Positions 4,109 to 30,357 of a stretch of 32,000 bases of DNA are shown here, one piece after another; the first letter of the stretch is position 1; each line of letters starts with the position of its first letter. Position numbers and translations under genes: made by a program. The notes under the pieces are model-generated. The model was not told where the DNA came from. It worked only from the letters and a program-made list of their open reading frames with translations, and did not search any database. Where the stretch lies: contig NZ_CP195536.1 in the NCBI RefSeq assembly GCF_051307035.1, positions 1,770,001 through 1,802,000 on the forward strand, written 5' to 3'. The stretch comes from Psychrobacter sp. DM4. GTDB lineage: Bacteria; Pseudomonadota; Gammaproteobacteria; Pseudomonadales; Moraxellaceae.

Positions 4109-4543
4109 CTTGGTCAATCCTTTTTGGGTCTTATCTGTCTGGTGACAGCTCATAGTTAGTATAAAATCTAGTTAAAGTAAAATCGTCATGCTCTTAACAC
4201 AAACCGCAAAAATAATAAATCAAAATAAGCAGTCAATAGTTAAGAGGCTATATCTATCCATTATAGGCACATAGCAGCGAATTGTTTATAGCTTTGAAAA
4301 AATGGTAAAAATACAGGTATTCAGCCAAGAAATGACGAATAGTAATTAGATGAATATTGATAACTTTATGGTTAACTTATACGATCTAAGACCAATTTTT
4401 AGTTGCTAATAAAAGATTGATTTTAAACATTGTTAAGCTTTAATTAAAGTTAAGCTAATGAATTTTTTAATCTAAAGGTGTCAAAAGGGTAAGATTTATT
4501 TTATGATAATAAATACAGATTATTTGATCTACAAGGAAGCGTC
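4109..4543. promoter_or_regulatory. AT-rich divergent intergenic region (aceE promoter to the left, A1 promoter to the right)
   Basis: About 435 nt with no credible ORF and very AT-rich. A -10-like GATAAT at 4505-4510 sits in the context TATTTTATGATAATA, which resembles the TTTGTGATAAT elements at 12246-12256 and 9124-9134. A direct repeat GTTAAGCT occurs at 4432-4439 and 4449-4456. Confidence 0.45.
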
Positions 4544-6613: not shown

Positions 6614-6658
6614 TTGATGGCTGCCCTATCATAAGCAGCTTTTGAGATAGCGACATCG

Positions 6659-6697
6659 AAACAGACACATATATCAATAAGAGTGTCTGTTTTGTTC
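6659..6697 (+). terminator. Rho-independent terminator after A1
   Basis: AAACAGACAC (6659-6668) pairs perfectly with GTGTCTGTTT (6683-6692) and runs into TTTTGTT. Confidence 0.6.
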
Positions 6698-6709
6698 TGT
6701 GTGCATACT

Positions 6710-6781
6710 CTTGCATTTCATCCTGATATAACTACCTCTCATACTTTATTGTTAGGCTTTACTTGCGTCTTTGTATAAGAT
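6710..6781 (+). promoter_or_regulatory. Putative A2 promoter with two 21-bp-phased repeat boxes
   Basis: The proximal box ACTACCTCTCA (6731-6741) matches the ACTACCATTCA box of the B2 promoter at 9/11 positions. The distal box CTTGCATTTCA (6710-6720) matches at 6/11 and lies exactly 21 bp upstream. TTTGTATAAGAT (6770-6781, -10-like TATAAG) starts 39 nt after the proximal box, the same geometry as at 9063-9134 and 12185-12256. Confidence 0.45.
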
Positions 6782-6858
6782 TAAACACTCAAAGTAATAT
6801 CATAATTTTGATTCTTTACTTAATAGCTAAAGAGCCAAAGATCATAAGGCGTAACGAT

Positions 6859-8913
6859 ATGCACAATATTCACATCTCTCTGTATACTCGTGTAGCCAAT
6901 ATGCCTACATATCGAGTACTCGTATCGCTTGCCTTTATGATAGGTTTTTTTGGTACTGAAGCTAACGCCAATTTCGAATCTACTGCGACCTCTACAGCTG
7001 CTGCTTGTCCCATAAATCATAAGATGTACTTTATTGGTGCCAACGCCAATGCTCCTGCGTCAACGCCAGACTTTCCCGTAGTGAGCTTACCTCTCAACTG
7101 GACAGCTGGAGACTCTTCGAGAAATTTTACTTTCGCAGAATCTTCAGGAAACAAAACCTTCAATATTAATTTCTCATCGATTGTGGAAAAAAACAATAGT
7201 CAAGGTGCTCCTCCTTTCTATGGGTCTATTAATGGCAGCACATCTTCTGCTATTAACTTGGTTCACGACTCTACATCGACTGTAAATAACCATATTTTAA
7301 ATATTAGTACCAATCGCTCAGTGAGTAAGGCAGGCTATGAAATACAAGATGTAGACTCCTTAACCTCTAATGTTATTATTGGGTATATTGGTTTCTTTCC
7401 AATTCGCGCAGATAGAACACCATATGCAGAACAGATAGACGTATCTGCCAACGGTGGTCGGTTGACATTTAATAGTTTGTTTCATGCTGCTAACAACCCT
7501 GCTCCTAATACCAGTATAGTGACCGCAATTGAAGGTCAGAACTGTTCTACTGGTGAGTGTGATATTGATGCTTCTTGGGGTTACAAAGCTGCAAATAGCG
7601 TCCTAGGATTGAGACATAATAATACGATTAATGAAACCCCTGCTCCACATGCTGTTGGATATTCTAATTTTTATTTTTGTTTAGCACCACCTAAAGTTCT
7701 TGTAAAAAAAGTACTAGCTGGTAACCGTGTCAATGATACTGATACTAATCGAGATCAGTTTGAGCTTAGTATTAACAGAGGAACAACGGTTGTCAATGCG
7801 GTTACCACGACAGGCTCAGGTTCAGCCGTCACGAACAACAACAATCGAAATGCTGTAAGCATAGCTGAAAACACAAGCTATACCATTACTGAACGCGTCA
7901 GAAATGGTACAACGCTTGGTGAGATTGCAAATTATAATGCTACTTATACCTGTACCAATGCGACCACAGGTAGTACCACTGTCATGCCCACTGCAAATAT
8001 GGTATTTAATGCGACTACAAAAACTCGTTCGTTTACGTTGGCTAGTACCAATTTTGGTGATGAGATAACTTGTACCATTACCAACACACCAATCGGCTAT
8101 ACTTTTTCGGGTACTGTATTTGATGATAATGGTGGTATTACAGATAGTGAAGCCAACGCTACTAACGCAGACATTGCTAGTAGCAGTAGCCCTTACGCGA
8201 ATAGACCCAATTATTTTAATGGGGTATTTAATACACCTCAAGAGCTCGGTATTGCTGGCAGTACGGTCAAATTAGTCAACTGTACGGCCCCTAGTACCGT
8301 TTATGCCACTCAAGCAGTATCAACAACGGGGACTTACCAGATAAATGCTTCTGCCGCTACGATAAATAGCAATTCTAATAATATCTGCCTAGTAGAAGAG
8401 CGCGCTGGTACTGATTACCCTATTCGTACCAACGCACCTACTAAGACGGTCAATATAGTCACCAATACCTTTGATTACCCTAATAATAACTTTGGTCGCG
8501 TGATCGCTGCAAACGTCGCCTTGGTGCTCAAAAAGTCTCAATACATCAATAACTGCCCTGCGACACTCAACTACGCTAGTATTGGAGATACCACCAGTCC
8601 ATCGACAGGGTTTAGCTCAGCCTTAGTTGAAAATATCGCACCTGGCAGATGTATCGCCTACAAGATTACAGCGACCAATCGCGCTAATGTCAATATTGAT
8701 AACTTTGTTATGAAAGATATATTACAAAACAAAGGGGTCAACAATGCCATCGTGACGTCAACAATTGCAGCTCCTGCCCCCGCTTCAACAGATTATACGG
8801 CCAACAGCCCTACTATTGGCCAAAATGGTACAATGGAGTCTAAATCCTTTACCTTAAACCCAAGAACCAAACGTGACTTCTATTTCAATACCAAGTACGG
8901 TACCAGTCAATAA
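6859..8913 (+). CDS. Secreted multi-domain Ig-like surface protein A2 (paralogue of A1)
   Basis: The ORF track gives 6763-8913. I prefer ATG 6859 (AAGG 9 nt upstream), with ATG 6901 (MPTYRVLVSLAFMIGFFGTEANA|NFEST) as an alternative. Architecture matches A1: an N-terminal domain from AAACPINH to NFYFCLAPP; a SpaA-like domain (KVLVKKVL...YTITE...EITCTITN); an SdrD-B-like domain (YTFSGTVFDDNGGIT); and a C-terminal DUF11-like domain (ALVLKKSQYINNC...GRCIAYKITATNRA...MKDIL). Confidence 0.85.
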   Translation: MHNIHISLYTRVANMPTYRVLVSLAFMIGFFGTEANANFESTATSTAAACPINHKMYFIGANANAPASTPDFPVVSLPLNWTAGDSSRNFTFAESSGNKTFNINFSSIVEKNNSQGAPPFYGSINGSTSSAINLVHDSTSTVNNHILNISTNRSVSKAGYEIQDVDSLTSNVIIGYIGFFPIRADRTPYAEQIDVSANGGRLTFNSLFHAANNPAPNTSIVTAIEGQNCSTGECDIDASWGYKAANSVLGLRHNNTINETPAPHAVGYSNFYFCLAPPKVLVKKVLAGNRVNDTDTNRDQFELSINRGTTVVNAVTTTGSGSAVTNNNNRNAVSIAENTSYTITERVRNGTTLGEIANYNATYTCTNATTGSTTVMPTANMVFNATTKTRSFTLASTNFGDEITCTITNTPIGYTFSGTVFDDNGGITDSEANATNADIASSSSPYANRPNYFNGVFNTPQELGIAGSTVKLVNCTAPSTVYATQAVSTTGTYQINASAATINSNSNNICLVEERAGTDYPIRTNAPTKTVNIVTNTFDYPNNNFGRVIAANVALVLKKSQYINNCPATLNYASIGDTTSPSTGFSSALVENIAPGRCIAYKITATNRANVNIDNFVMKDILQNKGVNNAIVTSTIAAPAPASTDYTANSPTIGQNGTMESKSFTLNPRTKRDFYFNTKYGTSQ

Positions 8914-8935
8914 TTTAACGTTTTAGACATCCAAA

Positions 8936-8972
8936 AACGCCTATTTAGTTATCCGACTAGATAGGCGTTTTT
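8936..8972 (+). terminator. Rho-independent terminator after A2
   Basis: AACGCCTAT (8936-8944) pairs with ATAGGCGTT (8961-8969) and is followed by a T-run to 8972. Confidence 0.7.
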
Positions 8973-9062
8973 GATTTCGGAAATTTCTTCATACATAGGT
9001 TTCTACCTAAAGCATAGTTTATCTACTTCTCGTCTTGATGAATATTTTCTAGTAATTATGTG

Positions 9063-9134
9063 ATTACCATTCAGTAACTTCAAACCGCCATCTATCACCT
9101 TTTTGATGACTTAATTTTTGCTATTTGTAATGAT
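9063..9134 (+). promoter_or_regulatory. Putative B1-C1 promoter with two 21-bp-phased repeat boxes
   Basis: ATTACCATTCA (9063-9073) matches ACTACCATTCA at 10/11, and ACCGCCATCTA (9084-9094) matches at 7/11. A -35-like ATGACT lies at 9106-9111. TTTGTAATGAT lies at 9124-9134 (TG-n-AATGAT, extended -10-like). By hand, the 31 nt from the -35 element to the -10 element align at 21/31 with 12226-12256. Confidence 0.5.
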
Positions 9135-9276
9135 GCAGGCATCAGAAATACCTCAGTATTTTCACAGACTTATCTCTAGATATTCGTTATTGAATCATAC
9201 TTCTAGTACGTCCCAAGCTATCCAGAATAGCGATATGCATGTGTCTGATCGACAACCCCTTACAAAGGATTTTATT

Positions 9277-9741
9277 ATGCAATATTTTAATCTTTTACGT
9301 ACCACTATATTTGTGGCAGTAGCTTTCACCGTATCGCTAGGCGCTGCTCATGCCGATGACGCTTTGAAGATGAATTTGAGCGCGAATAAAGTCATCAAAA
9401 ATGCTGAGGGCGGTATCTCTTATCTACCCGTGAGCACAGCACCAGCGGGCACTGTTATTCAGTATAAAGCGAACTATACCAATACCATAAGTAAAGACAT
9501 CAATAACGTTATGGTCACGCTACCTATCCCTGCCAACATGACGTTTACAGGTGATGCCTTGCCTGCTAGTGCTCAAGCAAGTATCGATGGCAAGAATTAC
9601 GCAGACATGCCTTTGATGCGCAAAGTCGATGGCAAGCTAGTCAAGATCCCATTATCTGAATACCGTACGCTACGCTGGAATATCAAATTACTACCTGCTA
9701 ACAAGTCTGCTGCTGTGGCGTTAAATACCAAAGTTAGCTGA
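9277..9741 (+). CDS. Small secreted single-domain DUF11-like protein B1 (154 aa)
   Basis: The ORF track gives 9118-9741. I place the start at ATG 9277 because AAAGGA lies 7 nt upstream and a clean signal peptide follows (MQYFNLLRTTIFVAVAFTVSLGAAHA|DDALKM). A single Ig-like domain is present (GTVIQYKANYTNT...VTLPIPANM). About 80% identical to B2 over the mature protein (103/128, hand count). Confidence 0.85.
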   Translation: MQYFNLLRTTIFVAVAFTVSLGAAHADDALKMNLSANKVIKNAEGGISYLPVSTAPAGTVIQYKANYTNTISKDINNVMVTLPIPANMTFTGDALPASAQASIDGKNYADMPLMRKVDGKLVKIPLSEYRTLRWNIKLLPANKSAAVALNTKVS

Positions 9742-9810
9742 TAAAAGCTCTACTATCATTTTCAACTTATATCACTAACTATTTATTTATTTATCGTCTT
9801 GGAGCATTTT

Positions 9811-11856
9811 ATGAAAGCAGCAACCTTTAAACATAGCTTGATCGCTGTTGGCGTTACTGCAGCATTAGGTATCTCTACTAGTGCCTTAGCTACTAACACT
9901 ACTAGCGGTACGACCACCACTAACGTAGATATTAAAAACATTGCAACAGCAAACTATGACATCGCTGGTGTCAAACAGACAGAGGTGAAGTCTAACGAAG
10001 TTATCGTTCGAGTATCAGAGAAATTATCGTTCTCTTTGGTTGCAAATAACGAAGATGGTAATCCTGGTGATACTATCAATGAAAAACTAGAAGTTGCTCC
10101 TAACGGTTTTGCGGTATTTAACCACACGTTGACCAACACTGGTAACCGTAATGACAACTATACGCTCAATCTTGCCAATGTTACTGGTGATGATGCAGAT
10201 TACGATTTGACCGCATCTACGGTTACCTACTCTTTATACAATGCAGGACAGACTCCTGGTACCGATACGCCTGTATCTACGCAATCTAATGTCCCTGTGA
10301 GTACGCTCAATGGAACTAGTTTCGCATTAGAGGCAGGTCAGTTTGTCAAGTTCACTATTAATGCCAAGACTAAAGATAACAAAGGCGGCAATAGACAAAA
10401 TTTGAGATTAACAGCAACTAGCTCTTTATTGCCAACTGCCAGCAAAACATTGACTAACACTGACAAATCAGTGACAACACTACCAACATTTAGTATTGTT
10501 AAAACAGTTTTGAACTCGTTAGATCTGAATAATGCTAACGATACTGCTACCTATCAGATAGTAATCAAGAACCCAACGACTGACTATTCTGCTAATGCAA
10601 CTGATATTACTATTACAGATAACTTGCCAGCGGGTCTGCTTATAGCATCAGCACTAACGACGAATAGCATTGTTGTTAGTGGTAGTGCGACTAAAGGTGC
10701 GCTCTCTCAAACTGATAAAGGTTTTGAGTTAAAAGGAGCAAACCTTCCTGTGGGTGATAGTATCACTATTAACTTTACGGTCAAAAAAGACCCTAATGCT
10801 GCCCTAGCAAACAATGCCTTGAACCATGTTAAAGTCACTGATGATTTGGACAATAACCCAGCTACTGATAACACTTTGATCGATAGCACTGACAGTACGG
10901 TTGAAAACGTCAACCAATTCTATCCTGTCAATGATACCGACTTTACCAACGGTACCAATGCAGATGGTACTAACGGCAATGACTCCACTCAGCCACTAGC
11001 GACTATTAAACGTGAGCTGAAATTGACCAATCCTACTATAAAAGAGATCGCTCCGACTTCAGGTACAGCAGGTCAGGTTTTACATCAAACTCTTATTACT
11101 AACAGTGGTCAAAACACTGAAGGCAATGTGACAGGCGGCTTAACCTTTACTATTACAGATAACGACAATGGTACGCCAGATGCGGTAAACGTCGTACCTG
11201 GTTCTGTAACCCTGACCTATGATCCAGATGGTCCTGGTTCTGCGCCAGCGCAAACCGCAGTCGGCATTACCCCTAATAACAGTGGCGTATATGATATCAA
11301 GACCGCCCTGCCTAATGGTATAGCGCCTACCGGTACGGTTAATATCAGTTATAAGGTCTCATCAGAAAATGCTGAAATTGGTATCTCTGAAGATACTGTA
11401 GTGAGACTGACTGCTAGTGGTAAAGGCGCGCCTACAGTTGCTCCAGTAACTGATAGAACAGATGTTAAAGGTATTACTCTCGTCAAGAGCCAAGCTTTAG
11501 ACGCTGCGTGTGACGGTACTGCTGATACTGCCTTTAGTAGCTCTGCTGATCCACTTGCGGCAACGCCCGGTCAATGCGTAATCTATCAAATCGCGGCCAA
11601 GAACACCTCTACTACTGAGCGTGGATTCAATATACAGAATCTAGTCATCTCAGATGCGACAGCCAACTTCGTTGCGACTGCTGATTACAGAGGAAACACT
11701 TTTGCCTCTACAACTAGCACAGGTTCTGGTACAACCGTCACATCTGCTGCAGCGCGTAACGCTGACGAAACAGCTATTAGTACTACTATTAACCCACTAG
11801 TACCGCAGGGAACAGCGACAATGAAGTTTTCAGTGAAGATTAAAACGAATCGTTAG
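9811..11856 (+). CDS. Secreted multi-DUF11-repeat protein C1 (putative fibre shaft subunit)
   Basis: The ORF track gives 9799-11856. I place the start at ATG 9811 with GGAG 6 nt upstream. Signal peptide ends ...GISTSALA|TNTT. Canonical DUF11/TIGR01451-type motif is present (TATYQIVIKNPT...ATDITITDNLPAGLLIAS). There is an N-terminal NIATANY...SNEVIVRV hairpin and a C-terminal Cys-pair domain (ITLVKSQALDAAC...GQCVIYQIAAKN). Confidence 0.85.
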   Translation: MKAATFKHSLIAVGVTAALGISTSALATNTTSGTTTTNVDIKNIATANYDIAGVKQTEVKSNEVIVRVSEKLSFSLVANNEDGNPGDTINEKLEVAPNGFAVFNHTLTNTGNRNDNYTLNLANVTGDDADYDLTASTVTYSLYNAGQTPGTDTPVSTQSNVPVSTLNGTSFALEAGQFVKFTINAKTKDNKGGNRQNLRLTATSSLLPTASKTLTNTDKSVTTLPTFSIVKTVLNSLDLNNANDTATYQIVIKNPTTDYSANATDITITDNLPAGLLIASALTTNSIVVSGSATKGALSQTDKGFELKGANLPVGDSITINFTVKKDPNAALANNALNHVKVTDDLDNNPATDNTLIDSTDSTVENVNQFYPVNDTDFTNGTNADGTNGNDSTQPLATIKRELKLTNPTIKEIAPTSGTAGQVLHQTLITNSGQNTEGNVTGGLTFTITDNDNGTPDAVNVVPGSVTLTYDPDGPGSAPAQTAVGITPNNSGVYDIKTALPNGIAPTGTVNISYKVSSENAEIGISEDTVVRLTASGKGAPTVAPVTDRTDVKGITLVKSQALDAACDGTADTAFSSSADPLAATPGQCVIYQIAAKNTSTTERGFNIQNLVISDATANFVATADYRGNTFASTTSTGSGTTVTSAAARNADETAISTTINPLVPQGTATMKFSVKIKTNR

Positions 11857-11888
11857 AGAAATATCGTAGTAAGTATCAGTATCTAGCG

Positions 11889-11925
11889 CTCATAGGAACA
11901 TAAACGTGCCTATGAGTGTTTTTTT
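11889..11925 (+). terminator. Rho-independent terminator after C1
   Basis: CTCATAGG (11889-11896) pairs with CCTATGAG (11909-11916) and is followed by TGTTTTTTT. Confidence 0.75.
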
Positions 11926-12184
11926 GTGTATAATATTTGCAAGTTGATGTGTCAGCAAAAGCAGCTACGGATCGAAGATCCTAATTCTAACGCTAGTAAA
12001 TCGTCTTATTATTCAACATTATAGAAATATTAAGTCTTTAAGCGAATATGCGTAAGTAAAGTTATTTCTTATTTTCAGAGCATTTACCCTCATTACTTGT
12101 ATACGATAACTTGATTACATGTTTCACATAAATGATTGTTATTGTTAGTTTTTTACCAAAAAAATGCATGATAATCATATTCTT

Positions 12185-12256
12185 ACTACCATTCAACTAC
12201 TACTAACTACCATTCATCTTTTATGTAGTGACGGTATGTTACCTATTTGTGATAAT
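12185..12256 (+). promoter_or_regulatory. Putative B2-C2 promoter with two exact 21-bp-phased repeat boxes
   Basis: An exact 11-mer, ACTACCATTCA, occurs at 12185-12195 and 12206-12216. A -35-like GTGACG lies at 12228-12233. After a 17-bp spacer comes the extended -10 element TGTGATAAT (TG 12248-12249, GATAAT 12251-12256). Confidence 0.55.
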
Positions 12257-12373
12257 ACAACCATAAGAGTTGTATCTATCCTCAATTGTCCACATTTACT
12301 TATTGCCATTCGGTATGGCACAGATGTTGCACCAATGACCACGACTAGCAATGAATTGAACAAGGACAAAGAT

Positions 12374-12838
12374 ATGAACCTCTCTAACTTATTACGTACT
12401 ACCTTACTGGCAACTTTAGCAAGCCTTACTTTATCAGGTATTGCTCACGCTGATGACGCTCTAAAAATGGAGCTAACAGCAAATAAAGTCACTAAGGCTG
12501 TAGATGGCAAAGTAAGTTACGCACCTGTTAGTACCGCGCCAGCAGGTACCGTGATTCAGTACAAAGCGAACTATACCAATACAATTAATAAAGACATTAA
12601 CGATCTAGCCGTTATCTTACCTATCCCAACTAATATGGCATTCAACGGTGAAGCTAGTCCTGCTAGCGCACAGGCAAGCATCGATGGCAAGAACTACGCC
12701 GATATGCCACTGATGCGCAAGGTGGATGGCAAGATGATTAAGATTCCATATTCTGAATATCGTACATTACGTTGGAATATCAAATTACTACCCGCTAAGA
12801 AGTCTGCCGCTGTGGCACTGAACACCATTGTCGAATAG
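12374..12838 (+). CDS. Small secreted single-domain DUF11-like protein B2 (154 aa)
   Basis: The ORF track gives 12164-12838. I place the start at ATG 12374 with AAGGA 7 nt upstream. Signal peptide is MNLSNLLRTTLLATLASLTLSGIAHA|DDALKM. Same length as B1 and ~80% identical to it. Confidence 0.85.
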   Translation: MNLSNLLRTTLLATLASLTLSGIAHADDALKMELTANKVTKAVDGKVSYAPVSTAPAGTVIQYKANYTNTINKDINDLAVILPIPTNMAFNGEASPASAQASIDGKNYADMPLMRKVDGKMIKIPYSEYRTLRWNIKLLPAKKSAAVALNTIVE

Positions 12839-12882
12839 TTCGTTTTTGGACTACTCATTTATACCCTTAGGAGAATTACCGT

Positions 12883-14904
12883 ATGAAACCTAACTTATTT
12901 AAATACTCAGTACTGACCGTCGGTATTGTCACTGCTATGGGTATTACTAGCACTGCTAATGCTGACGATGTCACTTATAGTGAAGACAATGCCTTTGTTG
13001 TAAAGAACATCGCCACTGCGACCTACAATGTCACAGGTAATGATACTCAGCAAACTGCTGAATCGAATGAGGTGACTATTACTGTCAATGAGACAGGTGC
13101 GTTCAGCTTGATTGCCACCGTTGCTGATGGTAGCCCTGGTGACGATGAAAACGAAGATATCGATGTCAACCCAGTATCAGGTGCTCCTGTCGAGTTTACT
13201 CATACCTTAACGAACGATGGTAACATCACAGATACCTATACTATAGATATCTCAAATGAAAATGGCGATGACTTTGATTATGATATTGCCAACAGCACGA
13301 TTACATATCAGATCCGTGATATCGACGGTAACCCCGTTGGCGCTGTTGAGCCTGTCCTTAATGGCGGTACTATAGAGCTTGATCCAGGTCAGTCTGCTGA
13401 TATCGTTATCAGCGCGGTTACAGATCCTAATGATGATCGCGTGATTGGTGATAATGGTATATTAACGGTCACCTCGACCAGTAAATATCTAACTGATCTT
13501 GGCCAGCCTGCAGTCGCTACTAACACGGATAATGCTGTTACCGTAACGCCTATCTATGCGATTACGAAGTCAGCGCAAAGCAACCTTGGCACTCAGATTA
13601 TCGATTTAAATAACGCCAATGCCTACGTTGACTACACGATTACCGTGTTGAACGAAGGTACCGCTGACGGTACTGATGTTACTATTACAGATGATCTGCC
13701 TGCTGGCCTAATTGCCATACAAAACGGCGAAGCCAATTATGTGGCACCTACTACTACTGGTACAGGCACTCCTGCTGTCTCAAGCGATGGTAGAACGGTT
13801 ACTTTAATTGGTCAAAATATCGATCAAAACGATACAATCACGATTACCTTCCGCGCCAGACCTGCTGACAATGCAACAGTCGGTAGTGACTTTGTCAACT
13901 TTGCGGTAGTGACTGATGATTTAGACGACGATGGTGACATTGATCTAACGGATAGTTCAGGTGACGCTGCTGATAACAATACAACAGAAGATAACTTTGA
14001 AGATCCAACCAACCCTGATATCGGTGAAGATAATAACGATAATGCGACTGTTACACCAAGGAATCAGACGCGTTCTTTGACCATTACTGATGATGAAAAT
14101 AAAGAAGTCGCTCTACAAAGCACTGATAATGTGTACACTTATACCATTACCAATGCTGGTACAGATGTCACTGAAGCAGACGCTGAAGATGAAGTCTTCT
14201 TCACAGTGACACCAACTATCGACATCAACGAGATCGATACGGTTACTGTATTTGTAGATGCTAATGGTGATGGCGTATTCGATGCTGGTGAGACCGTATT
14301 GACTCCTAATGCTAGTGGTCAGTATGACTTAAACGATGCGGTTAACGCAGGCCTTGCTCCTAGTGAATCCGTGACTATCGGTGTCGTTGTCAATACCAAT
14401 GGTTCAGGCAGTAACAACGGTCAAGATAGCGATATTGGTAAGTTTGAGGAAATCGTTATCACAGTTCTACCACAAACAGTAGTAGACGGTACACCTGCTC
14501 CTGTCGATGTTAGCGCTGAGTCAACGACAACGATGGAAGGTATTGATCTATTCAAATTCCAAGCCGCTGCTGCTTGTGACACCAATCCGACCTCTATTAC
14601 GAACTGGGTAACGACTAATGTGGTGGCTACTGCTGATCAGTGTGCATTCTACAAATTAGAAGCTACTAATACTTTCTCTAATACAGCAATTAATAGTATT
14701 GTTCTATCGGATACTCTAGTTGATACGCTGACTTATCAAAATGGTAGCTTCTCTTCTGAGACGTCAAACAACTCAGATGACGCGACATCGACTATCTCTG
14801 GCCAGAGTGTCAGTGGTACGTTTGCTACTTTGACAGGAACAGAAACAGGTACTATCTATTTCTCTGCCAAGATCTCTCAGACGGGTACTAATAGCACACC
14901 ATAA
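12883..14904 (+). CDS. Secreted multi-DUF11-repeat protein C2 (acidic paralogue of C1; putative fibre shaft subunit)
   Basis: 673-aa ORF with an AGGAG RBS. Signal peptide ends ...GITSTANA|DDVT. DUF11 motif is present (YVDYTITVLNEGTADGTDVTITDDLPAGLIAI). There is an N-terminal NIATATY...SNEVTITV hairpin and a C-terminal Cys-pair domain (IDLFKFQAAAAC...DQCAFYKLEATN). Composition is very Asp/Glu-rich. Confidence 0.85.
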   Translation: MKPNLFKYSVLTVGIVTAMGITSTANADDVTYSEDNAFVVKNIATATYNVTGNDTQQTAESNEVTITVNETGAFSLIATVADGSPGDDENEDIDVNPVSGAPVEFTHTLTNDGNITDTYTIDISNENGDDFDYDIANSTITYQIRDIDGNPVGAVEPVLNGGTIELDPGQSADIVISAVTDPNDDRVIGDNGILTVTSTSKYLTDLGQPAVATNTDNAVTVTPIYAITKSAQSNLGTQIIDLNNANAYVDYTITVLNEGTADGTDVTITDDLPAGLIAIQNGEANYVAPTTTGTGTPAVSSDGRTVTLIGQNIDQNDTITITFRARPADNATVGSDFVNFAVVTDDLDDDGDIDLTDSSGDAADNNTTEDNFEDPTNPDIGEDNNDNATVTPRNQTRSLTITDDENKEVALQSTDNVYTYTITNAGTDVTEADAEDEVFFTVTPTIDINEIDTVTVFVDANGDGVFDAGETVLTPNASGQYDLNDAVNAGLAPSESVTIGVVVNTNGSGSNNGQDSDIGKFEEIVITVLPQTVVDGTPAPVDVSAESTTTMEGIDLFKFQAAAACDTNPTSITNWVTTNVVATADQCAFYKLEATNTFSNTAINSIVLSDTLVDTLTYQNGSFSSETSNNSDDATSTISGQSVSGTFATLTGTETGTIYFSAKISQTGTNSTP

Positions 14905-14923
14905 TTACTGATTTATGATCAAA

Positions 14924-14960
14924 GGAGTTTTCTTAATCAGATTAAGAAAACTCCCCTTTT
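14924..14960 (+). terminator. Strong hairpin with a weak T-tract between C2 and D (leaky terminator or attenuator)
   Basis: A perfect 14-bp stem, GGAGTTTTCTTAAT (14924-14937) with ATTAAGAAAACTCC (14941-14954), closes a 3-nt loop and is followed by CCTTTTA. Confidence 0.55.
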
Positions 14961-15009
14961 ACCCTTTATACATTAACTATGTTTTCTTTCATAAGTAGGA
15001 TTACCGAAT

Positions 15010-18000
15010 ATGCGTCAAGCTGTATTTTCGACTCGTAACCCTCGCTACCGTACAGGCGCGTTGACTGCGCTGACTACGTTGGCAGCGTCGATGCTACTTA
15101 TGCAAGCAAATATCGCTCATGCTGAAGATGGCAAGGGTGTCACCACGATCAACAACATCGCGCAAACCAGCTACACAGTTGGCAACAGCAATCAGACGAG
15201 CACGTCTAACCAAGTTAGCTTTAAATCATTAACCCTGCCTCAATATGAGGTTAGCCTTACTCAGCCTGATCTACAAACTATCAGTGCGGGTGATACTGTT
15301 CAGTGGGTCAATGTACTATCGAATAATGGCACCTTTGATGAAACCGTTACTCTAAGCTTTGACTATCCAAGTACGCTATCTAACTTTGCGGTATACCAAG
15401 ACCTTAACGAAAACGGCATCATCGATGATAGTGATAGACAAGTTATACTCGATGGTTTGAGCGCTCAAATTGCCTTGGGTCAAGCCGAAAGTATCCAGTT
15501 TATCGTTCAAGCTTTGAGTGATCGTAACGCTGCTAGTGGCGATACTGCTGAGATTAAGATTGGCGCTGTCGTTGTCGAAGATGATTCTGTAACAGCAGCA
15601 GCGACTGACCGCCTCATCATTGTCAAGCCGAGTATTGGCTTTACAGACGATAGGTTTGAAGGGCCAAAAGATACGACACAAATAAGCTCAAACGTATACG
15701 TAGAAGCCAATTACGCGCAGTGTAATGTGCAGCCCAACGCAAAAGACCAAGTATGGGTGACAATTACCTCAGAATTGACAGGTGACAAATACTCTCTAAA
15801 AGCAATAGAGACGGGCGACAACACGGGTAAATACCAAGTATCAGCGCCGACTCAAAATAATGCCAATAAGATCGATGACCAGATTATTCAGACTTTGAAA
15901 GGCGATTCGCTGACCGTCACACTTGATGCTTGTATTACACCTGATGGCGGTCGCGTTGATATCATAGACAATATCAGCAACAACATCGATATTGTTGATC
16001 AATCTGCGAGCCTACAAGTTCAAAAAGAAGGCGATATCAAATCAGCTGATCTTGGTGATTACGTCAACTACAGTATTAATGTCACTAATAATGGTGCTGC
16101 AACCGCGTTCGATGTTGAGCTAAAAGATGCGTTGCCACGTGGTTTCGACTATGTCAAAGGTAGCGCACGCGTCAACCAAGGGGCTAATAGCGCAGATAGC
16201 GATATTGATATCAGTCAAGCTCAAACTACTGAGTTCAAGGTAGACGGCAAGTATCAAGTTCTAAACCTAGGTAACTTAGCTGCGGGTGAGACGAAGAGTG
16301 TCACTTATCGCGTTCTTATTGGCGCGTCAGCATTAGGTGGCGACGGTATTAACCGTGCTACCGCAGTCGCTCGTGATGATAATGACAATGTATTTGCATC
16401 CATGGAATCACAGTGGTCTGTTGATGTTAGCCGTGGTCTTATGAATACTGATGGTATTATCATTGGTAAAGTCTATCACGACATCAACCGAGACGGCATC
16501 CAGCAAAAAGAAGACGGCGAGCTTGGTGTCGCAGGTGTACGCATCTACATGGAGAACGGTAACTTTATCGTGACCGATCCTGAAGGTAAGTATAACTTTT
16601 ATGGTATCAGTGCCAAGACCCACGTATTAAAAGTCGATCGTACAACTATTCCTGTCGCAAGTGAGCTCATCACTCAAAGTAACCGCAACGCTGGAGATGC
16701 TGGTAGCCGCTTCGTTGATCTCAAATACGGCGAGTTACATCGCGCTGATTTCGCTATTGTTGGCGGTATGAGCGATAGCACTGAAACTCTTAACGCTGAG
16801 CTGGTTGCCCGTAGCAAAAGTATTAGCGCTAAGAACGATACCTTAGAGCAAGCGGTTAAAAGCAAGCTCGATTTAGAGCCTATCTATGATCGCGACTATG
16901 ATGACAACGTCGATGCTACTGGCTGCAAATCTAACGATGTACTCGATAAAGGTATCAAATGCGACTCTGCTATTGTCAACGAATTAGCGATACCTAGCGC
17001 TAATCGTATCAATATGGATGTCAAAAAAGTCGTCCAACCTAAAGAAAAAGTACTAGAAGAGTACCTAAAAGAAGTTGATAACAATAATGTTGCGTTTATT
17101 AATCTAAGTAGCGATCAACAGCTTGCTTCATATAAGCAGATGGTCCAAGTACAAGCGCCATTAGGTTCTAACTTTACCCTGTATGTGAATGGCAAAGCCG
17201 TATCAGCAGAACAGATCGGTAAAACGGCTGAACAAGAAAAACAAAACGTTACCGCGTTTGATTATTACGCTGTTGATTTACAGCGTGGTCGTAATACGCT
17301 CCGCGGCGTTGCCACTGATATCAATGGCAAGACGATTTCTGAGCAGTCCATCAATGTGACTACGCCTGATAGCTTGCAGGCGATCAACTACCGTACTCAG
17401 GATGGCTTAGTAGAAGCTGATGGCCTGAGCGAATATCAGATCGTCGTTAGTCTAAAAGATCGTGACAATCGTCCTTATGTTGCCTCAACACCGATCACTA
17501 TTGATACCAATATTGGTCGCATAAACTTACCTGATGGCAGTAAGGATAAAGCTGGTACGCAAGTGATGGTCAATGGTGGCGAGATACTAATTCCTGTCAT
17601 TGCACCAAGCGTACCTGGTAAAGGTCAGCTCGTTATCGACACTGGCAGCAGCAAACAAGTTATCGATTTACAGTTTACTCCTAAGCTGCGTCCGCTGATT
17701 GCGGTTGGTATCGTAGAAGGTGCAATATCACTCAAAGACTTCGATGGCGGCAGCATCACTGATGCTCAGGGCGCTTTTGAGCAAGAGCTAAATGAGATTG
17801 CAGGCGGTGACGATTACTCAGCGACTGGCCGTGCGGCGATGTTCCTCAAAGGTAAAGTTCGCGGTGATTATCTACTGACGCTCGCTTATGATAGCGACAA
17901 AAAAGGCGAGCGCTTGTTTCGTGATATCGAGCCTGGCGAGTACTACCCTGTCTATGGTGACTCATCGGCTAAAGGTTTTGACGCTCAATCAACGAGCAAA

Positions 18001-20313
18001 CTCTATGTGCGCCTAGATAAAGGTCGCTCATTCGCTATGTACGGTGATCTAAAAACTCAAGTCGATAACGATGATGGTATTAAGCTGGGTCAATACAATC
18101 GTACACTTACTGGTCTAAAAGCTCAGTATGAAGACACCAATACTCGTATCACTACGTTCCTTGCCGAAACCAGTTCATCACAGCGTGTGAATGAGACTCG
18201 TGGTCTTGGTATATCAGGCCCTTATCCTCTAGCTGAAGATTTCGACGCCGTATTAGAGAATTCTGAAATTGTTGAAGTCATCACTCGTGATGCCAATAAT
18301 CCTGGTCTCATTATACGCCGTGAAACGCTAAGTCGTTTCGCTGATTATGAGGTTGACCCTTTAAGCCGCAGTTTGTTCCTAAAAGCGCCTATTGCCAGTC
18401 AAGATCTAGATGGTAACCCTATCTACATCCGCGTGACAGTAGAAGTCGATGAGGGTGGCGAAGATTACTTTGTTGGCGGTATCGCAGCCAAGCAACAATT
18501 AAATAACAAGGTTTCTATTGGTGGTAGTTACGTCAATAGCGACGATCCACTCAATAAAGAAGAGCTTGCGAGCATTAACAGTGTTATCAAATTCAATGAC
18601 AAGCTAAAAATAGTCGCTGAATACGCGATGAGTAAAGCAGAAAACCCTAACTATCAAGCTAGCAATCAGATCAATACCCAAGAGCTAGATATACAAGATG
18701 CTGATGGTGATGCTCTGCGTATTGAGCTAAATTACGACGACAAGAAAAATACTCGTGCAAAAGCCTACTATAATGATGCTGACGAAGGTTTTGTCACTGG
18801 TGCATCCATTTTAACTGCTGGACGTACTGAATCTGGTGTTGAGATCAAACACCTTATCAATGATAAGAACACAGCGCTCAAATTTGAAGGCGTACGTACC
18901 AAAGACAATACGACTGATGCAACTCGTCAAGGTGTCGAAGCCAGTATCGAGCAGCGCTTGAGTCAGAACGTCGTTGGCGAGCTTGGTGTCCGTTATTATA
19001 AGCAAGATGCTACCGCTGCCTCACGCAACACTCAAGAAGCCACAGATGTTATTGATATCACTGATGATACGCTATTTGAAGACGATATTATCAATCAGTC
19101 AGCACTCAGTAGTGTGAGCGATGCTGACAAAGATATCGAAGGTACTACCGCACGCGCGCGTATTACCGCACGCCTGCCTAAGCTTAATAATAGCTTAGTG
19201 TTTGCAGAATACGAGCAAGATATTGAGAACAGCTCGCGTAACGCAACCTCCGTTGGTGGTGAGACGCCACTTGGCAATCTTGGTCGTCTATATGCTCGTC
19301 ATGACTTAATCAATAGTTTGTCAGGCAGTTATGGTCTCGATGATACCGATGAGCGTCAACGTACCGTCATCGGGTTCGATGCCAACTATATGAAAGACGG
19401 TAAAGTCTATAGCGAATACCGTATGCGTGATGCCATTAGTGCTCGTGAAGCAGAGGCCGCTATCGGTCTTAAGAACAAATGGTATGTGCAAGAAGGTCTG
19501 ACTCTCAATACCTTGTTTGAGCGCGTTGAGTCACTTGAAGGTGAAGAAAACAATACGGCGACCGCAGCGGGCATCGGTGTTGAATATTTAGCACAAGAGA
19601 ATTACAAAGCTTCAGGTCGTTTCGAGAAACGCTGGGGCGAGACTAGCGACACGTTGCTCGGCAGTGCTGGTATTGCTTATCGTTATACCGATGAAATTAC
19701 GTTACTTGCAAAAGACACTTACTCTCGTATCGATTATGACGATGGCGATCGTACTGTCAACCGCTTCCAGTTGGGCGCGGCGTATCGAGATCTAAATAGT
19801 AATCAGCTCGATATGCTAGCCAAGCTTGAGTATCGTTTAGATGACAATAATACGGGCGATGATACTTATCGCAGAGATACTACGATTTGGTCGTGGAATG
19901 GTAACTATCATCCGACTCGTCCTTTGACTTTATCTGGTCGTTACGCTGGTAAGTATACAGAATACGAAGCAGATAGCATCTCAAGTGATAACACAGCACA
20001 CGCCGTATACGGTCGTGGACTTTATGATCTTAGTGAGCGTTGGGACGTCGGTCTGCAAGCCGGTACTTACTGGAATGATCAAGCGGACGATCTGTCTTAT
20101 ATGCTAGGCGCTGAGGTCGGTTATAGTCCTATGACTAATCTATGGTTGTCTCTAGGGTATAACTTTATGGGCTTTGAAGATGATGATATTGCCTATGACG
20201 ATAGTACTCAACAGGGCGCATACTTTAGACTACGCTTCAAGTTTGATGAAGAATTATTCAAGCGTGATGATCCAAGCAAAAATAAACGTTTAGCAAGTAA
20301 CTCTACTTTATAA
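15010..20313 (+). CDS. Giant outer-membrane protein D: N-terminal Ig-like/DUF11/SdrD-B/Big_1-like region plus a very large predicted C-terminal beta-barrel
   Basis: 1767-aa ORF with AGGA upstream. Signal peptide ends ...MQANIAHA|EDGK. There is an N-terminal NIAQTSY...SNQVSFK hairpin. A canonical DUF11 motif is present (YVNYSINVTNNGAATAFDVELKDALPRGFDYV), as is an SdrD-B-like motif (GKVYHDINRDGIQQKEDGELGVAGVRIYMENGNFIVTDPEGKYNF) and a Big_1-like motif (VEADGLSEYQIVVSLKDRDNRPY). From about aa 880 (nt ~17650) the sequence shows alternating amphipathic strand/turn patterns. It ends ...LSLGYNFMGFEDDD...GAYFRLRFKF plus a 22-aa tail. Confidence 0.8.
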   Translation: MRQAVFSTRNPRYRTGALTALTTLAASMLLMQANIAHAEDGKGVTTINNIAQTSYTVGNSNQTSTSNQVSFKSLTLPQYEVSLTQPDLQTISAGDTVQWVNVLSNNGTFDETVTLSFDYPSTLSNFAVYQDLNENGIIDDSDRQVILDGLSAQIALGQAESIQFIVQALSDRNAASGDTAEIKIGAVVVEDDSVTAAATDRLIIVKPSIGFTDDRFEGPKDTTQISSNVYVEANYAQCNVQPNAKDQVWVTITSELTGDKYSLKAIETGDNTGKYQVSAPTQNNANKIDDQIIQTLKGDSLTVTLDACITPDGGRVDIIDNISNNIDIVDQSASLQVQKEGDIKSADLGDYVNYSINVTNNGAATAFDVELKDALPRGFDYVKGSARVNQGANSADSDIDISQAQTTEFKVDGKYQVLNLGNLAAGETKSVTYRVLIGASALGGDGINRATAVARDDNDNVFASMESQWSVDVSRGLMNTDGIIIGKVYHDINRDGIQQKEDGELGVAGVRIYMENGNFIVTDPEGKYNFYGISAKTHVLKVDRTTIPVASELITQSNRNAGDAGSRFVDLKYGELHRADFAIVGGMSDSTETLNAELVARSKSISAKNDTLEQAVKSKLDLEPIYDRDYDDNVDATGCKSNDVLDKGIKCDSAIVNELAIPSANRINMDVKKVVQPKEKVLEEYLKEVDNNNVAFINLSSDQQLASYKQMVQVQAPLGSNFTLYVNGKAVSAEQIGKTAEQEKQNVTAFDYYAVDLQRGRNTLRGVATDINGKTISEQSINVTTPDSLQAINYRTQDGLVEADGLSEYQIVVSLKDRDNRPYVASTPITIDTNIGRINLPDGSKDKAGTQVMVNGGEILIPVIAPSVPGKGQLVIDTGSSKQVIDLQFTPKLRPLIAVGIVEGAISLKDFDGGSITDAQGAFEQELNEIAGGDDYSATGRAAMFLKGKVRGDYLLTLAYDSDKKGERLFRDIEPGEYYPVYGDSSAKGFDAQSTSKLYVRLDKGRSFAMYGDLKTQVDNDDGIKLGQYNRTLTGLKAQYEDTNTRITTFLAETSSSQRVNETRGLGISGPYPLAEDFDAVLENSEIVEVITRDANNPGLIIRRETLSRFADYEVDPLSRSLFLKAPIASQDLDGNPIYIRVTVEVDEGGEDYFVGGIAAKQQLNNKVSIGGSYVNSDDPLNKEELASINSVIKFNDKLKIVAEYAMSKAENPNYQASNQINTQELDIQDADGDALRIELNYDDKKNTRAKAYYNDADEGFVTGASILTAGRTESGVEIKHLINDKNTALKFEGVRTKDNTTDATRQGVEASIEQRLSQNVVGELGVRYYKQDATAASRNTQEATDVIDITDDTLFEDDIINQSALSSVSDADKDIEGTTARARITARLPKLNNSLVFAEYEQDIENSSRNATSVGGETPLGNLGRLYARHDLINSLSGSYGLDDTDERQRTVIGFDANYMKDGKVYSEYRMRDAISAREAEAAIGLKNKWYVQEGLTLNTLFERVESLEGEENNTATAAGIGVEYLAQENYKASGRFEKRWGETSDTLLGSAGIAYRYTDEITLLAKDTYSRIDYDDGDRTVNRFQLGAAYRDLNSNQLDMLAKLEYRLDDNNTGDDTYRRDTTIWSWNGNYHPTRPLTLSGRYAGKYTEYEADSISSDNTAHAVYGRGLYDLSERWDVGLQAGTYWNDQADDLSYMLGAEVGYSPMTNLWLSLGYNFMGFEDDDIAYDDSTQQGAYFRLRFKFDEELFKRDDPSKNKRLASNSTL

Positions 20314-20449
20314 TAAGTAGAGTTATCTTATTTTAGGCCTTTGTTGATGTAGGCTTCAAACAATACAAGCTCTACTAATTCTAATGTATTGTAAGTAATC
20401 AAACAGTCGCGACTAACCCTTATTATTTTAATACAAGGTTTGTAATACG

Positions 20450-21409
20450 ATGAATGCTTCAGACCTCACGACCAAAATACTGACCTGCCAGCGTCGCCTG
20501 CCAGCCGCTCTATCAGCTATCCTACTGGCACTCATAACCTCTTCTGCGTCGGCAGATTTGGATGTTGATAATACAACTCGCATTACACCTGTCTCTGTAC
20601 AACCTATTGCTATTCAACCTAGCGTTGTTAAATCTAGTCCTATTCAATCGACCATTACTGACCTGACTATCATTGCTCCAGCTATGAATATCAGCACAAA
20701 TGCTATAACTCGCTGTGAAGATAATCGTCAGAATAAAACTTCTAAATACCAAACCAAGCAGCAGCGTGATATCGCTTGCATGATCGAGCAATTACAACCG
20801 TATCAGCAAGCAAATGTGACCGCCCGTCAGCAGTATCTAGCTTTTAAGGCACAAGCATGGCTTAACTACGCCAATAATAAATACAGTATGAATAGCCGTG
20901 CCTCTATTGCTGATTATGCTTTCGAGTCTGGCAAAGAGATTTTTTTGGCACTTAAAAACAATGATGAGCAAAACATTAATCTTGTAAGAGACATTCCGAC
21001 AACCTCTGATATGATGCGCCCTGACCTTTGGGCGATGCTAAGTGCACTTAAAACGGCGGGCGGTATCAATAGTGCGCCGCGTGAGCTGGCTTTTAGCGAA
21101 GTTTCTCTAATTTGGGCAGCAGCAGATCATTGTGCTAGAGGCTGGCGCGAGTCGAGTCCTCGTTTTAGAATGGGCGAGCGCTGGTTAGAACAAACCCGTG
21201 AAGCCTATGTCAATGCCAATAGCTCTACTGATAGCGCTGCGCTTATTGAGCAGATCAACAGCTACTATAAACAATATGAGCAACTAGACCCTAGAAATAA
21301 TATCTGTAATGGTCAAGTCATGCCTGTGGTCAACCAAACCCAGGCTAGTGCTACGTCTGTTTTTATTCCAATGCCTATGCCAACGGCTACTTATACCCTT
21401 TCCAACTAG
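20450..21409 (+). CDS. Secreted, predominantly helical protein E of unknown function
   Basis: 319-aa ORF with AAGG upstream. The N-terminus is ...CQRRLPAALSAILLALITSSASA|DLDV: a signal peptide containing a twin-arginine pair whose context is not a clean Tat motif. There are four Cys in the mature part and no recognisable catalytic motif. A bidirectional terminator follows the gene. Confidence 0.7.
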   Translation: MNASDLTTKILTCQRRLPAALSAILLALITSSASADLDVDNTTRITPVSVQPIAIQPSVVKSSPIQSTITDLTIIAPAMNISTNAITRCEDNRQNKTSKYQTKQQRDIACMIEQLQPYQQANVTARQQYLAFKAQAWLNYANNKYSMNSRASIADYAFESGKEIFLALKNNDEQNINLVRDIPTTSDMMRPDLWAMLSALKTAGGINSAPRELAFSEVSLIWAAADHCARGWRESSPRFRMGERWLEQTREAYVNANSSTDSAALIEQINSYYKQYEQLDPRNNICNGQVMPVVNQTQASATSVFIPMPMPTATYTLSN

Positions 21410-29367: not shown

Positions 29368-29368
29368 C

Positions 29369-30322: not shown

Positions 30323-30357
30323 CCTGTTTTTTTTATTGCCTCAGGAACCTTGCTGTC

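Follow-up and report, generated by a model that had tools for sequence, protein, structure and literature searches.

CLIPPER (DUF11), SdrD_B and SpaA-type domains are known as stalk domains of surface adhesins (PMC12617251). The CLIPPER fold carries a triad, with a Lys in the first strand, an Asp in the motif 'vtDtLP' and an Asn in the last hairpin ('ltNtAtv'), which forms an intramolecular isopeptide bond (PMC12617251; 9IFR). Among the β-barrels of the outer membrane (OM), the largest solved single-chain example is SprA with 36 strands (bioRxiv 10.64898/2026.03.07.710327), and contact maps led Solan et al. (PNAS 2021) to predict that a superfamily of OM proteins of unknown function forms single barrels with 38 and 40 strands (PMC8346858). 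The main text of the latter paper contains no match to 'DUF11' or 'Ig-like', and its text on the 38- and 40-strand families gives no function. Here we describe gene D (15010..20313, + strand), located in a 32,000-nucleotide stretch of the Psychrobacter sp. DM4 genome (contig NZ_CP195536.1, positions 1,770,001 to 1,802,000), which is called the window below. D has an ATG start and encodes a secreted protein of 1767 amino acids (aa) annotated as 'hypothetical protein' (WP_435978698.1). It is number seven of eight same-direction genes spanning 4544-21409, which also encode two tip-type subunits (T1 and T2), two small proteins (S1 and S2; S in related loci), two shaft-type subunits (B in related loci) and a secreted partner (E); all features of the cluster given below are on the + strand. 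In our reading, to which we give about an even chance, D is the OM base of a surface fiber of CLIPPER-type subunits and probably also their export pore. No published description of a D-type fiber system was found in the literature, the nearest being the 2021 prediction of 38- and 40-strand barrels.

Comparison with known fiber and barrel systems

In chaperone-usher pili (FimD/PapC, FimC/PapD), each subunit has an incomplete immunoglobulin (Ig)-like fold, which is completed by a segment from the N-terminus of its neighbor. The subunit genes are accompanied by a gene for a small Ig-like protein of the periplasm, the subunits follow a tip-shaft-base layout, and one large OM barrel contains an inserted non-membrane domain. 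The D system, as predicted here, resembles them in all these respects, and the stem-loop located after the last shaft gene (12883-14904) and just before D can be counted as a further likeness. The usher, however, has 24 strands compared to about 38 in D, and its system donates one strand where the D system would donate a two-strand hairpin. The usher plug is found in the periplasmic β6-β7 connection, whereas the insert of D lies in an outward loop between strands 7 and 8. In contrast to chaperone-usher pili, the D barrel protein would itself be the last subunit of the fiber, and the joints may be covalent. No match to Usher (PF00577) was found at E ≤0.1 in D or its 43 homologues, nor among the PDB sequence matches, and there are no ushers among the 50 Foldseek matches listed for the D barrel. 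Homology to ushers was rejected based on the absence of a family match and the location of the insert on the wrong side of the membrane.

Sortase pili of the SpaA/BcpA/EbpB type also combine CnaA/CnaB-type subunits with isopeptide triads, have their tip, shaft and basal genes together, and use a basal subunit to fix the fiber to the envelope; the best fold matches of the D arm are such pilins. Unlike these pili, the D system is found in a diderm host, with a proposed split-domain linkage and an OM β-barrel as the anchor. The C-termini of its subunits show no LPXTG, pilin motif, hydrophobic stretch or charged tail and end in an acceptor β-strand. No sortase was named by Pfam or NCBIfam among the eight cluster proteins, and the remaining open reading frames (ORFs) of the window were judged from their translations only.

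Type Va autotransporters share with D the presence of an N-terminal passenger and a barrel on one chain, as well as a segment which would have to thread the pore. Type Ve proteins likewise have a Big_1/invasin-type domain adjoining the barrel, but in D this domain precedes the barrel. Autotransporter barrels have 12 strands compared to about 38 in D, and the D system adds separate subunits, a small partner, an OmpA-type partner, and split versions. The Autotransporter family (PF03797) showed no match in D and weak matches in three of the 43 homologues (E 0.0095 or weaker), whereas IAT_beta (PF11924) matched one member of the 43 (E 0.02). For the TpsB/Omp85 proteins of two-partner secretion, no POTRA, Bac_surface_Ag or ShlB match was detected in D or the 43 homologues, and Pfam also gave no match there to the TonB-dependent receptor families PF07715 and PF00593. 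A TonB-dependent receptor was rejected as a candidate based on this result, on the generic nature of the fold matches (TM-scores 0.16-0.18) and on the PGAP label being limited to one distant relative. An MtrB-type porin-cytochrome complex was also rejected, with no cytochromes found in the cluster.

SprA (36 strands), SlpA (30), MtrB and LptD (both 26) belong to the same size class as D and represent its best fold matches. SprA lets folded proteins through, MtrB forms a sheath around a protein running through it, and LptD as well as SprA depend on partner proteins that act as plugs. The strand count of D, if right, exceeds those of all four barrels. Unlike them, D is encoded in a cluster without cytochromes, type 9 components or an SLH domain, and an N-terminal jellyroll was not detected. 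The likeness of D to the 38- and 40-strand families 002 and 003 of Solan et al. lies in strand number alone (PMC8346858). Archaeal threads (PMC9715654) and Clostridium perfringens BsaA (bioRxiv 10.1101/2024.11.04.621531) are likewise sortase-independent and combine the donation of a strand or segment with an isopeptide bond, but they have other folds, occur in other organisms and have no OM barrel at the base, and the bond in the D system is a predicted one. Judged by family matches, strand number, side of the insert and sorting signals, the D system lacks the defining features of chaperone-usher pili, sortase pili and autotransporters. We place it outside the known kinds, with its functional steps being predicted.

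Donor hairpins and acceptor domains

The N-terminal region of D starts with a Sec signal peptide (aa 1-38, 15010..15123), which was read from the sequence with a cleavage site between IAHA and ED and is aligned in the D homologues. Right after the signal peptide there is a donor motif, 'I.N.A.A.Y ... SN.V..V', which corresponds to the last CLIPPER hairpin including its Asn. In D, this hairpin comprises aa 44-73 (VTTINNIAQTSYTVGNSNQTSTSNQVSFKS; 15139..15228) with Asn49 at the position of the isopeptide Asn. When the strict pattern N.A...[YF] was counted, the hairpin was found in 50 of 61 D proteins (most of the others have variants) and in all 42 shaft B proteins, but in none of the 57 S proteins. 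The presumed acceptor is a CLIPPER-like domain, in which the Lys ('RL.K.Q') and the Asp ('SD.TP') are present but the last hairpin is missing. It is present at the C-terminus of 39 of the 42 B proteins, and in none of the 61 D or 57 S proteins. The S proteins consist of a single CLIPPER-like domain, also hairpin-less, with the Asp replaced ('A/V-TLPIP') and the Lys not conserved. When the T1 acceptor was joined to the hairpin of the shaft subunit 9799-11856, its score with the Pfam family CLIPPER_2 increased from 19.8 to 29.9 bits (cut-off 27).

These motifs suggest hairpin complementation between the subunits and a possible isopeptide bond at the joint. Since D is a donor only, it most likely represents the membrane-anchored base subunit of the fiber. 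An earlier note on this DNA had placed a donor-type hairpin at the extreme N-terminus of D and proposed D as the anchor of the neighboring proteins. The hairpin is supported by its conservation in the D and shaft homologues, and the role of anchor fits well with a donor-only D and with shaft and tip proteins ending in a CLIPPER-like domain that lacks this very hairpin.

Alternatively, D might be a stand-alone giant adhesin resembling autotransporters, which displays only its own arm, with the DUF11 neighbors being independent of it and the hairpin representing an edge of its first domain. The passenger-then-barrel order fits this proposal, and the low confidence of the AlphaFold2 (AF2) model for aa 38-330 leaves room for an intramolecular role of the hairpin. 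We consider such an adhesin improbable, because precisely those proteins whose partners end in a hairpin-less CLIPPER domain, B and D, have the hairpin at their mature N-terminus, and it is absent from S and E. In addition, the split systems described below imply that the barrel must handle a protein which is not fused to it, and the S-B-D-E order is strict across phyla.

The predicted C-terminal barrel of D

No Pfam or NCBIfam family was found over aa 880-1767 of D. The AF2 model of aa 871-1767, based on an alignment of 43 sequences, has a predicted local distance difference test score (pLDDT) of 73.7, a predicted template modeling score (pTM) of 0.67 and approximately 43 strands. A near-unbroken run of long strands forms one β-meander from residue 897 to 1745, and 38 of them, with a mean length of 12 residues, were assigned to the wall of a predicted OM β-barrel (aa 897-1745, 17698..20244). 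A Foldseek comparison of this model with the PDB listed only large OM barrels, including MtrB (E 3e-8), SprA, SlpA, LptD and TonB-dependent receptors, with TM-scores of 0.25 or lower and approximately 10% sequence identity. On this model, the C-terminal domain of D is a barrel-type fold without a close solved relative. Sequence searches revealed weak Pfam matches to OMP_b-brl, BBP2, DUF2490 and OmpA_membrane in up to 17 of the 43 members. The best E-value of a PDB sequence search with D alone was 0.098, and the family profile found a local match to a few strands of the Vibrio porin OmpT, as well as a marginal match to invasin.

With the insert (see below) removed, the nine connections of at least 10 aa (29, 36, 16, 98, 20, 14, 43, 11 and 15) all belong to one parity class, whereas in the other class 18 of 18 connections have 2-6 aa. 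This split of loop lengths is the signature of an OM barrel with short periplasmic turns. The C-terminus of D can be assigned to the periplasm because some family members have an OmpA peptidoglycan-binding domain fused right after the last strand. Given the parity and the periplasmic C-terminus, strand 1 (897-907) therefore starts in the periplasm, and the number of strands is even, 38. The periplasmic C-terminal tail (aa 1746-1767, DEELFKRDDPSKNKRLASNSTL; 20245..20310) opens with a family-invariant F-D-E (KFDEELF), corresponding to F875, D876 and E877 of the barrel query. Covariation was analyzed using mutual information with average product correction (MI-APC) and mean-field direct coupling analysis (DCA) of 326 non-identical family members (effective number of sequences, Neff, ~238), with the scores summed along antiparallel ladders. 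This analysis recovered the neighboring strands assigned by DSSP with a mean z of ~4 and values of up to 9.6. We infer a single closed pore of about 38 strands. By standard geometry, a closed 38-strand barrel would be approximately 7 nm across (Cα to Cα) and would admit folded Ig-like domains.

Most of what the earlier note had read from this region stands. The ORF and the sequence strings are exact, including GAYFRLRFKF (aa 1736-1745) with the 22-aa tail after it and the segment 18217-18447 (aa 1070-1146). The passenger-then-barrel order is supported, as is a barrel roughly three times as large as that of an autotransporter, with 38 wall strands counted from the AF2 model and parity. The AF2 model shows one β-meander, and its Foldseek matches are of barrel type. 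The note compared the size to usher, LptD and larger translocon barrels, and LptD and SprA are of the same size class and among the fold matches.

The last 850 residues could in principle form two or more smaller barrels, an open β-sheet or a solenoid. Chains with multiple barrels exist (PMC8346858), the closing contact was not detected by covariation, and the low TM-scores to solved barrels are compatible with such an arrangement. Nevertheless, we consider it very improbable, as a pTM of 0.67 over 897 residues, reached despite the disordered loops, argues for one rigid body. There is also no long linker other than the loops of the extracellular parity class, and no two known barrels were matched full-length by this region in the PDB-sequence and Pfam searches. 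Single 38- and 40-strand barrels have been predicted from contact maps (PMC8346858), although their agreement with D lies in strand number alone.

Inserted domain and conserved loop

Between wall strands 7 and 8, D contains an inserted small β-domain (aa 1055-1152, 18172..18465), which belongs to the best-conserved regions of the family. A ladder between non-neighboring strands (positions 175-184 and 283-293 of the barrel query) showed z values of 9.6 and 11.4 in two DCA runs, equal to the best neighbors. Therefore, the wall goes straight from D 1045-1054 to D 1153-1163. The strands of aa 1055-1152 pair with each other, the first with the last, as expected for a self-contained domain. Thus, the non-membrane insert proposed previously is real and slightly larger than described. 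The parity puts it on the extracellular side and so does not support a plug in the manner of ushers.

Wall strands 3 and 4 are connected by a very conserved 36-aa loop (aa 962-997, 17893..18000) with the consensus DSDK..RLFRDI.P..FYPVYGDSS.RGFDAQST. This loop belongs to the extracellular parity class, and AF2 was unable to place it. Based on the parity class and the periplasmic C-terminus, both the insert and the loop face outward, and for the insert the role of a lid or collar is more likely than that of a plug as in ushers.

Two distant relatives, from a Sinorhizobium meliloti plasmid (L083) and a Pseudochrobactrum plasmid (L084), share with D only the first 330-350 barrel residues (28-29% identity), a stretch that includes the conserved loop and the insert. 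They are OM proteins of ~1250 aa encoded directly after giant DUF11 proteins, and one of them is annotated as a 'TonB-dependent receptor'. The conserved N-terminal module of the barrel may represent a functional core travelling with DUF11 proteins.

The Ig-like arm

The AF2 model of aa 38-880 (30-sequence alignment) showed confident β-sandwich domains at aa 331-585 and 677-880. The first part of the arm (aa 38-330), for which three close homologues only are available, has a pLDDT below 50 and is predicted to be all-β; after the donor hairpin, it continues as the distal arm (aa 74-331, 15229..16002) with Cys238 and Cys308. This is followed by a complete CLIPPER (DUF11) domain (aa 335-474, 16012..16431; pLDDT ~80), which was matched by Pfam DUF11 (PF01345) over aa 335-460 (E 1.7e-13, 51.3 bits against a cut-off of 24.6) and by NCBIfam TIGR01451 (E 1.3e-13, 50.7 bits). 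The Lys (QVQK), Asp (LKDALP) and Asn (INRATAV) of the triad are in place within the expected motifs, and an isopeptide bond may form in this domain.

The next domain is a SdrD_B-like or carboxypeptidase-regulatory-like β-sandwich (aa 482-585, 16453..16764; pLDDT 80-89), which is strongly conserved in the family and has a Pfam SdrD_B score over aa 487-545 (28.8 bits) just below the cut-off (29.7). AF2 and the sequence then indicate a helix (aa 591-619) with a low-confidence linker containing Cys639 and Cys651 (16780..17007), followed by a β-sandwich domain conserved across the family (aa 677-797, 17038..17400; pLDDT ~90). A Big_1/invasin-D3-like domain (aa 808-890, 17431..17679) is located directly before the first wall strand. 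In the homologues, Pfam identified this pre-barrel domain as Big_1 in 25 of 43 and as Invasin_D3 in 24 of 43 proteins, and the family profile matched invasin (1cwv) with E 0.09. The best Foldseek matches of the arm model are the Gram-positive adhesin and pilin stalks UafA, BcpA, EbpB and SpaD, and other strings of Ig-like domains were also matched. As far as the models go, the Ig-like arm is confirmed for its proximal two-thirds and plausible for the rest. The DUF11 and Big_1-like domains listed in the earlier note were recovered, the SdrD_B-like domain was recovered below the cut-off, and the 'DUF11-like' and 'Cys-pair' domains of the first 330 residues are a sequence pattern only.

The domain types of the arm, together with homologous arms that are far too long for the periplasm, suggest that it is extracellular. 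A different possibility is a periplasmic scaffold, in which the arm would stay in the periplasm and form, together with E, an envelope-spanning or OM-to-wall connector in the manner of SlpA/OmpM. According to the parity, strand 1 has its N-terminus in the periplasm, which is the default side for OM barrels, SlpA is among the best fold matches, and peptidoglycan binding would be provided by the partner E or by a fused domain. Moreover, seven or eight Ig-like domains correspond approximately to the width of the periplasm. This scaffold appears distinctly unlikely, since the homologous arms or partner DUF11 proteins reach 2600 to over 3300 aa and would be too long for the periplasm, and CLIPPER, SdrD_B and SpaA-type domains are characteristic of surface-adhesin stalks (PMC12617251). 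The tip proteins also have variable, adhesin-like heads, and no peptidoglycan- or inner-membrane-binding module was found on the D arm by the Pfam scan.

Conservation of the gene cluster

Full-length relatives of D aa 871-1767 are present in many phyla with 35-47% identity. Among 1.84 billion cluster representatives (50% identity), 5,535 relatives were identified with the family profile at E ≤1e-3, including 2,686 at E ≤1e-30. When one genome was scanned for each species, the barrel family was present in at least 593 species. The neighborhoods were compared using phmmer, with the window proteins searched against the ORFs of 82 related loci. A collinear S-B-D-E cluster was found in Moraxellaceae, Burkholderiales, Geobacteraceae/Desulfuromonas, Verrucomicrobiota, Acidobacteriota and others, with S proteins of 150-200 aa, shaft B proteins of 650-970 aa and D proteins of 1750-2500 aa, followed by E. 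In Psychrobacter, one or two SpaA_3 tip proteins are added upstream, and loci of Acinetobacter and Verrucomicrobia also encode tip-type proteins. When the remaining ORFs were compared all against all, no other conserved OM or secretion gene was found in the cluster, leaving D as its sole conserved OM component.

Several lineages have a split form of the system, in which a DUF11 protein of 1500 to over 3300 aa is encoded by a gene overlapping the start of a separate barrel gene. The split-form barrel protein (~1090 aa) has its own signal peptide. In other loci, E is a protein of 360-450 aa, which has a C-terminal OmpA domain in most of the other species and in one case is a lipoprotein. The E protein of the window shares 38% identity with its Acinetobacter homologue (E 1e-29), and all Psychrobacter copies are short (250-350 aa). 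Some D homologues extend 400-500 residues beyond the barrel, with an OmpA domain in P0235, P0246 and P0191 and TPR repeats in P0136. In the OmpA-bearing homologues, the functions of D and E are naturally fused.

The role of D as a conduit, also proposed in the earlier note, is plausible and represents the weakest step of our reading. It is argued by elimination and from pore size, because D is the sole conserved OM component and a barrel of its size would admit folded Ig-like domains. D could instead be an anchor only, which holds the fiber through its donor hairpin, while the tip and shaft subunits cross the OM otherwise, for example through an unlinked type II system, and join outside. There is no sign here of other proteins passing through D, donor-acceptor complementation is possible outside the cell in principle, and the window represents 32 kb of the genome, so that a secretion system could sit elsewhere. 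We regard this proposal as unlikely, though deserving of attention: the cluster forms a self-contained unit, its collinear order is kept across phyla and D is the one conserved OM protein in it, approximately 38 strands are far more than a single linker needs, and S is best understood as a periplasmic partner of unassembled subunits.

Proposed assembly of the fiber

In the reading we prefer, with D as both the base of the fiber and its probable export pore, the C-terminal 850 residues of D would enter the OM after Sec export as one barrel of ~38 strands with its C-terminus in the periplasm, where E would tie the assembly to the cell wall. The 860-residue arm would leave the periplasmic start of strand 1 and pass outward through the lumen of its own barrel, with the Big_1-like domain remaining in the pore and the conserved insert and loop closing around it as a lid or collar. 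Outside, the free distal hairpin of the arm would complete the C-terminal CLIPPER domain of the last shaft subunit, which lacks this hairpin, and the joints between shaft subunits and between shaft and tip would be formed by the same hairpin completion. From N to C and from tip to membrane, the fiber would therefore be composed of the tip, n shaft subunits, the D arm and the D barrel. The joints may be covalent, formed by the hairpin Asn with the Lys and Asp of the acceptor like a natural SpyTag/SpyCatcher pair. The S protein, an acceptor fold without Lys and Asp, might serve as a periplasmic chaperone, or as a cap, that binds donor hairpins non-covalently. The other subunits would exit through the D pore before it is filled by D's own arm.

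Several observations weigh against this proposal. By loop parity, strand 1 and hence the arm start on the periplasmic side, so that an external arm would require its last domain or domains to thread the lumen. The ladder closing the barrel was not found by covariation, where the maximal z of 4.6 among 36,051 windows is at noise level. We consider this result uninformative, not contrary, and a limit of ~240 effective sequences, because several true neighboring strands score no higher. The strict donor motif is also present in six of the 23 tip-type proteins, and just 14 of these 23 show the acceptor pattern. The chimera test with Pfam worked for T1 alone, and both shaft acceptors had no CLIPPER-type match with or without a hairpin, because they are too divergent for Pfam. 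Finally, the E protein of the window has no OmpA peptidoglycan-binding domain and shares with its counterparts the N-terminal helical domain alone.

A stronger version of the model, in which D would be the translocon, with a barrel of the largest single-chain class, and the terminal subunit of a new fiber pathway of diderm bacteria, with spontaneous intermolecular Lys-Asn bonds at the split CLIPPER joints giving covalent pili without a sortase and with S as a dead-acceptor chaperone, is possible, but we advance it tentatively and hold it to be clearly short of an even chance. If these proposals are true, diderm bacteria of at least five phyla share an unrecognized route for long adhesive surface fibers, distinct from the chaperone-usher, type IV, type V, curli and type 9 systems. 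Several questions would then become testable, including the purpose of OM barrels with more than 36 strands and their folding by the β-barrel assembly machinery (BAM), the way in which the abundant DUF11/CLIPPER 'fibrillar adhesins' of Gram-negative bacteria cross the OM and stay on it, and the presence of covalently linked pili outside Gram-positive bacteria without a sortase. A natural split CLIPPER pair would provide a new protein-ligation tool, and a self-anchoring giant barrel would be a candidate display scaffold. Even if the conservative part alone is true, a family annotated as 'hypothetical' or 'outer membrane protein' gains a domain map and a conserved gene context.

Other genes and stem-loops of the window

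The two tip-type subunits, T1 (689 aa, 4544..6613) and T2 (716 aa, 6763..8913), have the same layout without a donor hairpin. A divergent N-terminal head of ~270 aa with no family match is followed by a SpaA_3 prealbumin-like domain and the C-terminal acceptor domain. The binding specificity probably resides in these heads, and the tip proteins of other genera have heads unrelated to those of T1 and T2. S1 (9118..9741) has a mature length of ~130 aa and contains a single hairpin-less CLIPPER-like domain without Lys and Asp, and S2 (12164..12838) is its paralogue. Homologues of these proteins have ~154 aa, with a CLIPPER-like domain and no Pfam family above threshold. The S1 and S2 ORFs as listed begin far 5' of their probable starts (MQYFNLLRTT... 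and MNLSNLLRTT..., respectively), and the S1 start is probably near 9274. Each of the two genes is directly 5' of a shaft-subunit gene, and the S-B pair is thus present twice in the window. The second shaft-type subunit (685 aa, 9799..11856) has an N-terminal donor hairpin and a C-terminal hairpin-less acceptor, and the shaft-type subunit encoded next to D (673 aa, 12883..14904) has the same layout, with an acceptor of the CLIPPER-like type. Gene E (20450..21409) encodes a secreted partner of 319 aa, which is homologous to the helical domain at the N-terminus of the OmpA-family (lipo)protein encoded after D elsewhere.

The 105-nt gap between the shaft gene 12883-14904 and D contains a perfect 14-bp stem-loop, GGAGUUUUCUUAAU-CAG-AUUAAGAAAACUCC, at 14924-14954, followed by CCUUUU (ΔG -16.5 kcal/mol; z -5.0 compared to shuffled sequences). 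By analogy with the fim and pap operons, a function in partial termination or mRNA stabilization is possible, which would set a high ratio of subunits to D. Another, AT-rich stem-loop of 12 bp is located at 20297-20326 across the stop codon of D, with a T-rich stretch after it. It is terminator-like, and E may therefore have its own transcript.

The cluster is flanked by unrelated housekeeping genes, such as a pyruvate dehydrogenase E1-like gene at 1289-4153 on the opposite strand. Further downstream, the translations of 27703-31521 (+ strand) suggest a TolC-like OM factor, a YihY/BrkB-like membrane protein and an HlyD-like adaptor. These genes are probably unrelated to D, because they are not kept beside it in other genera.

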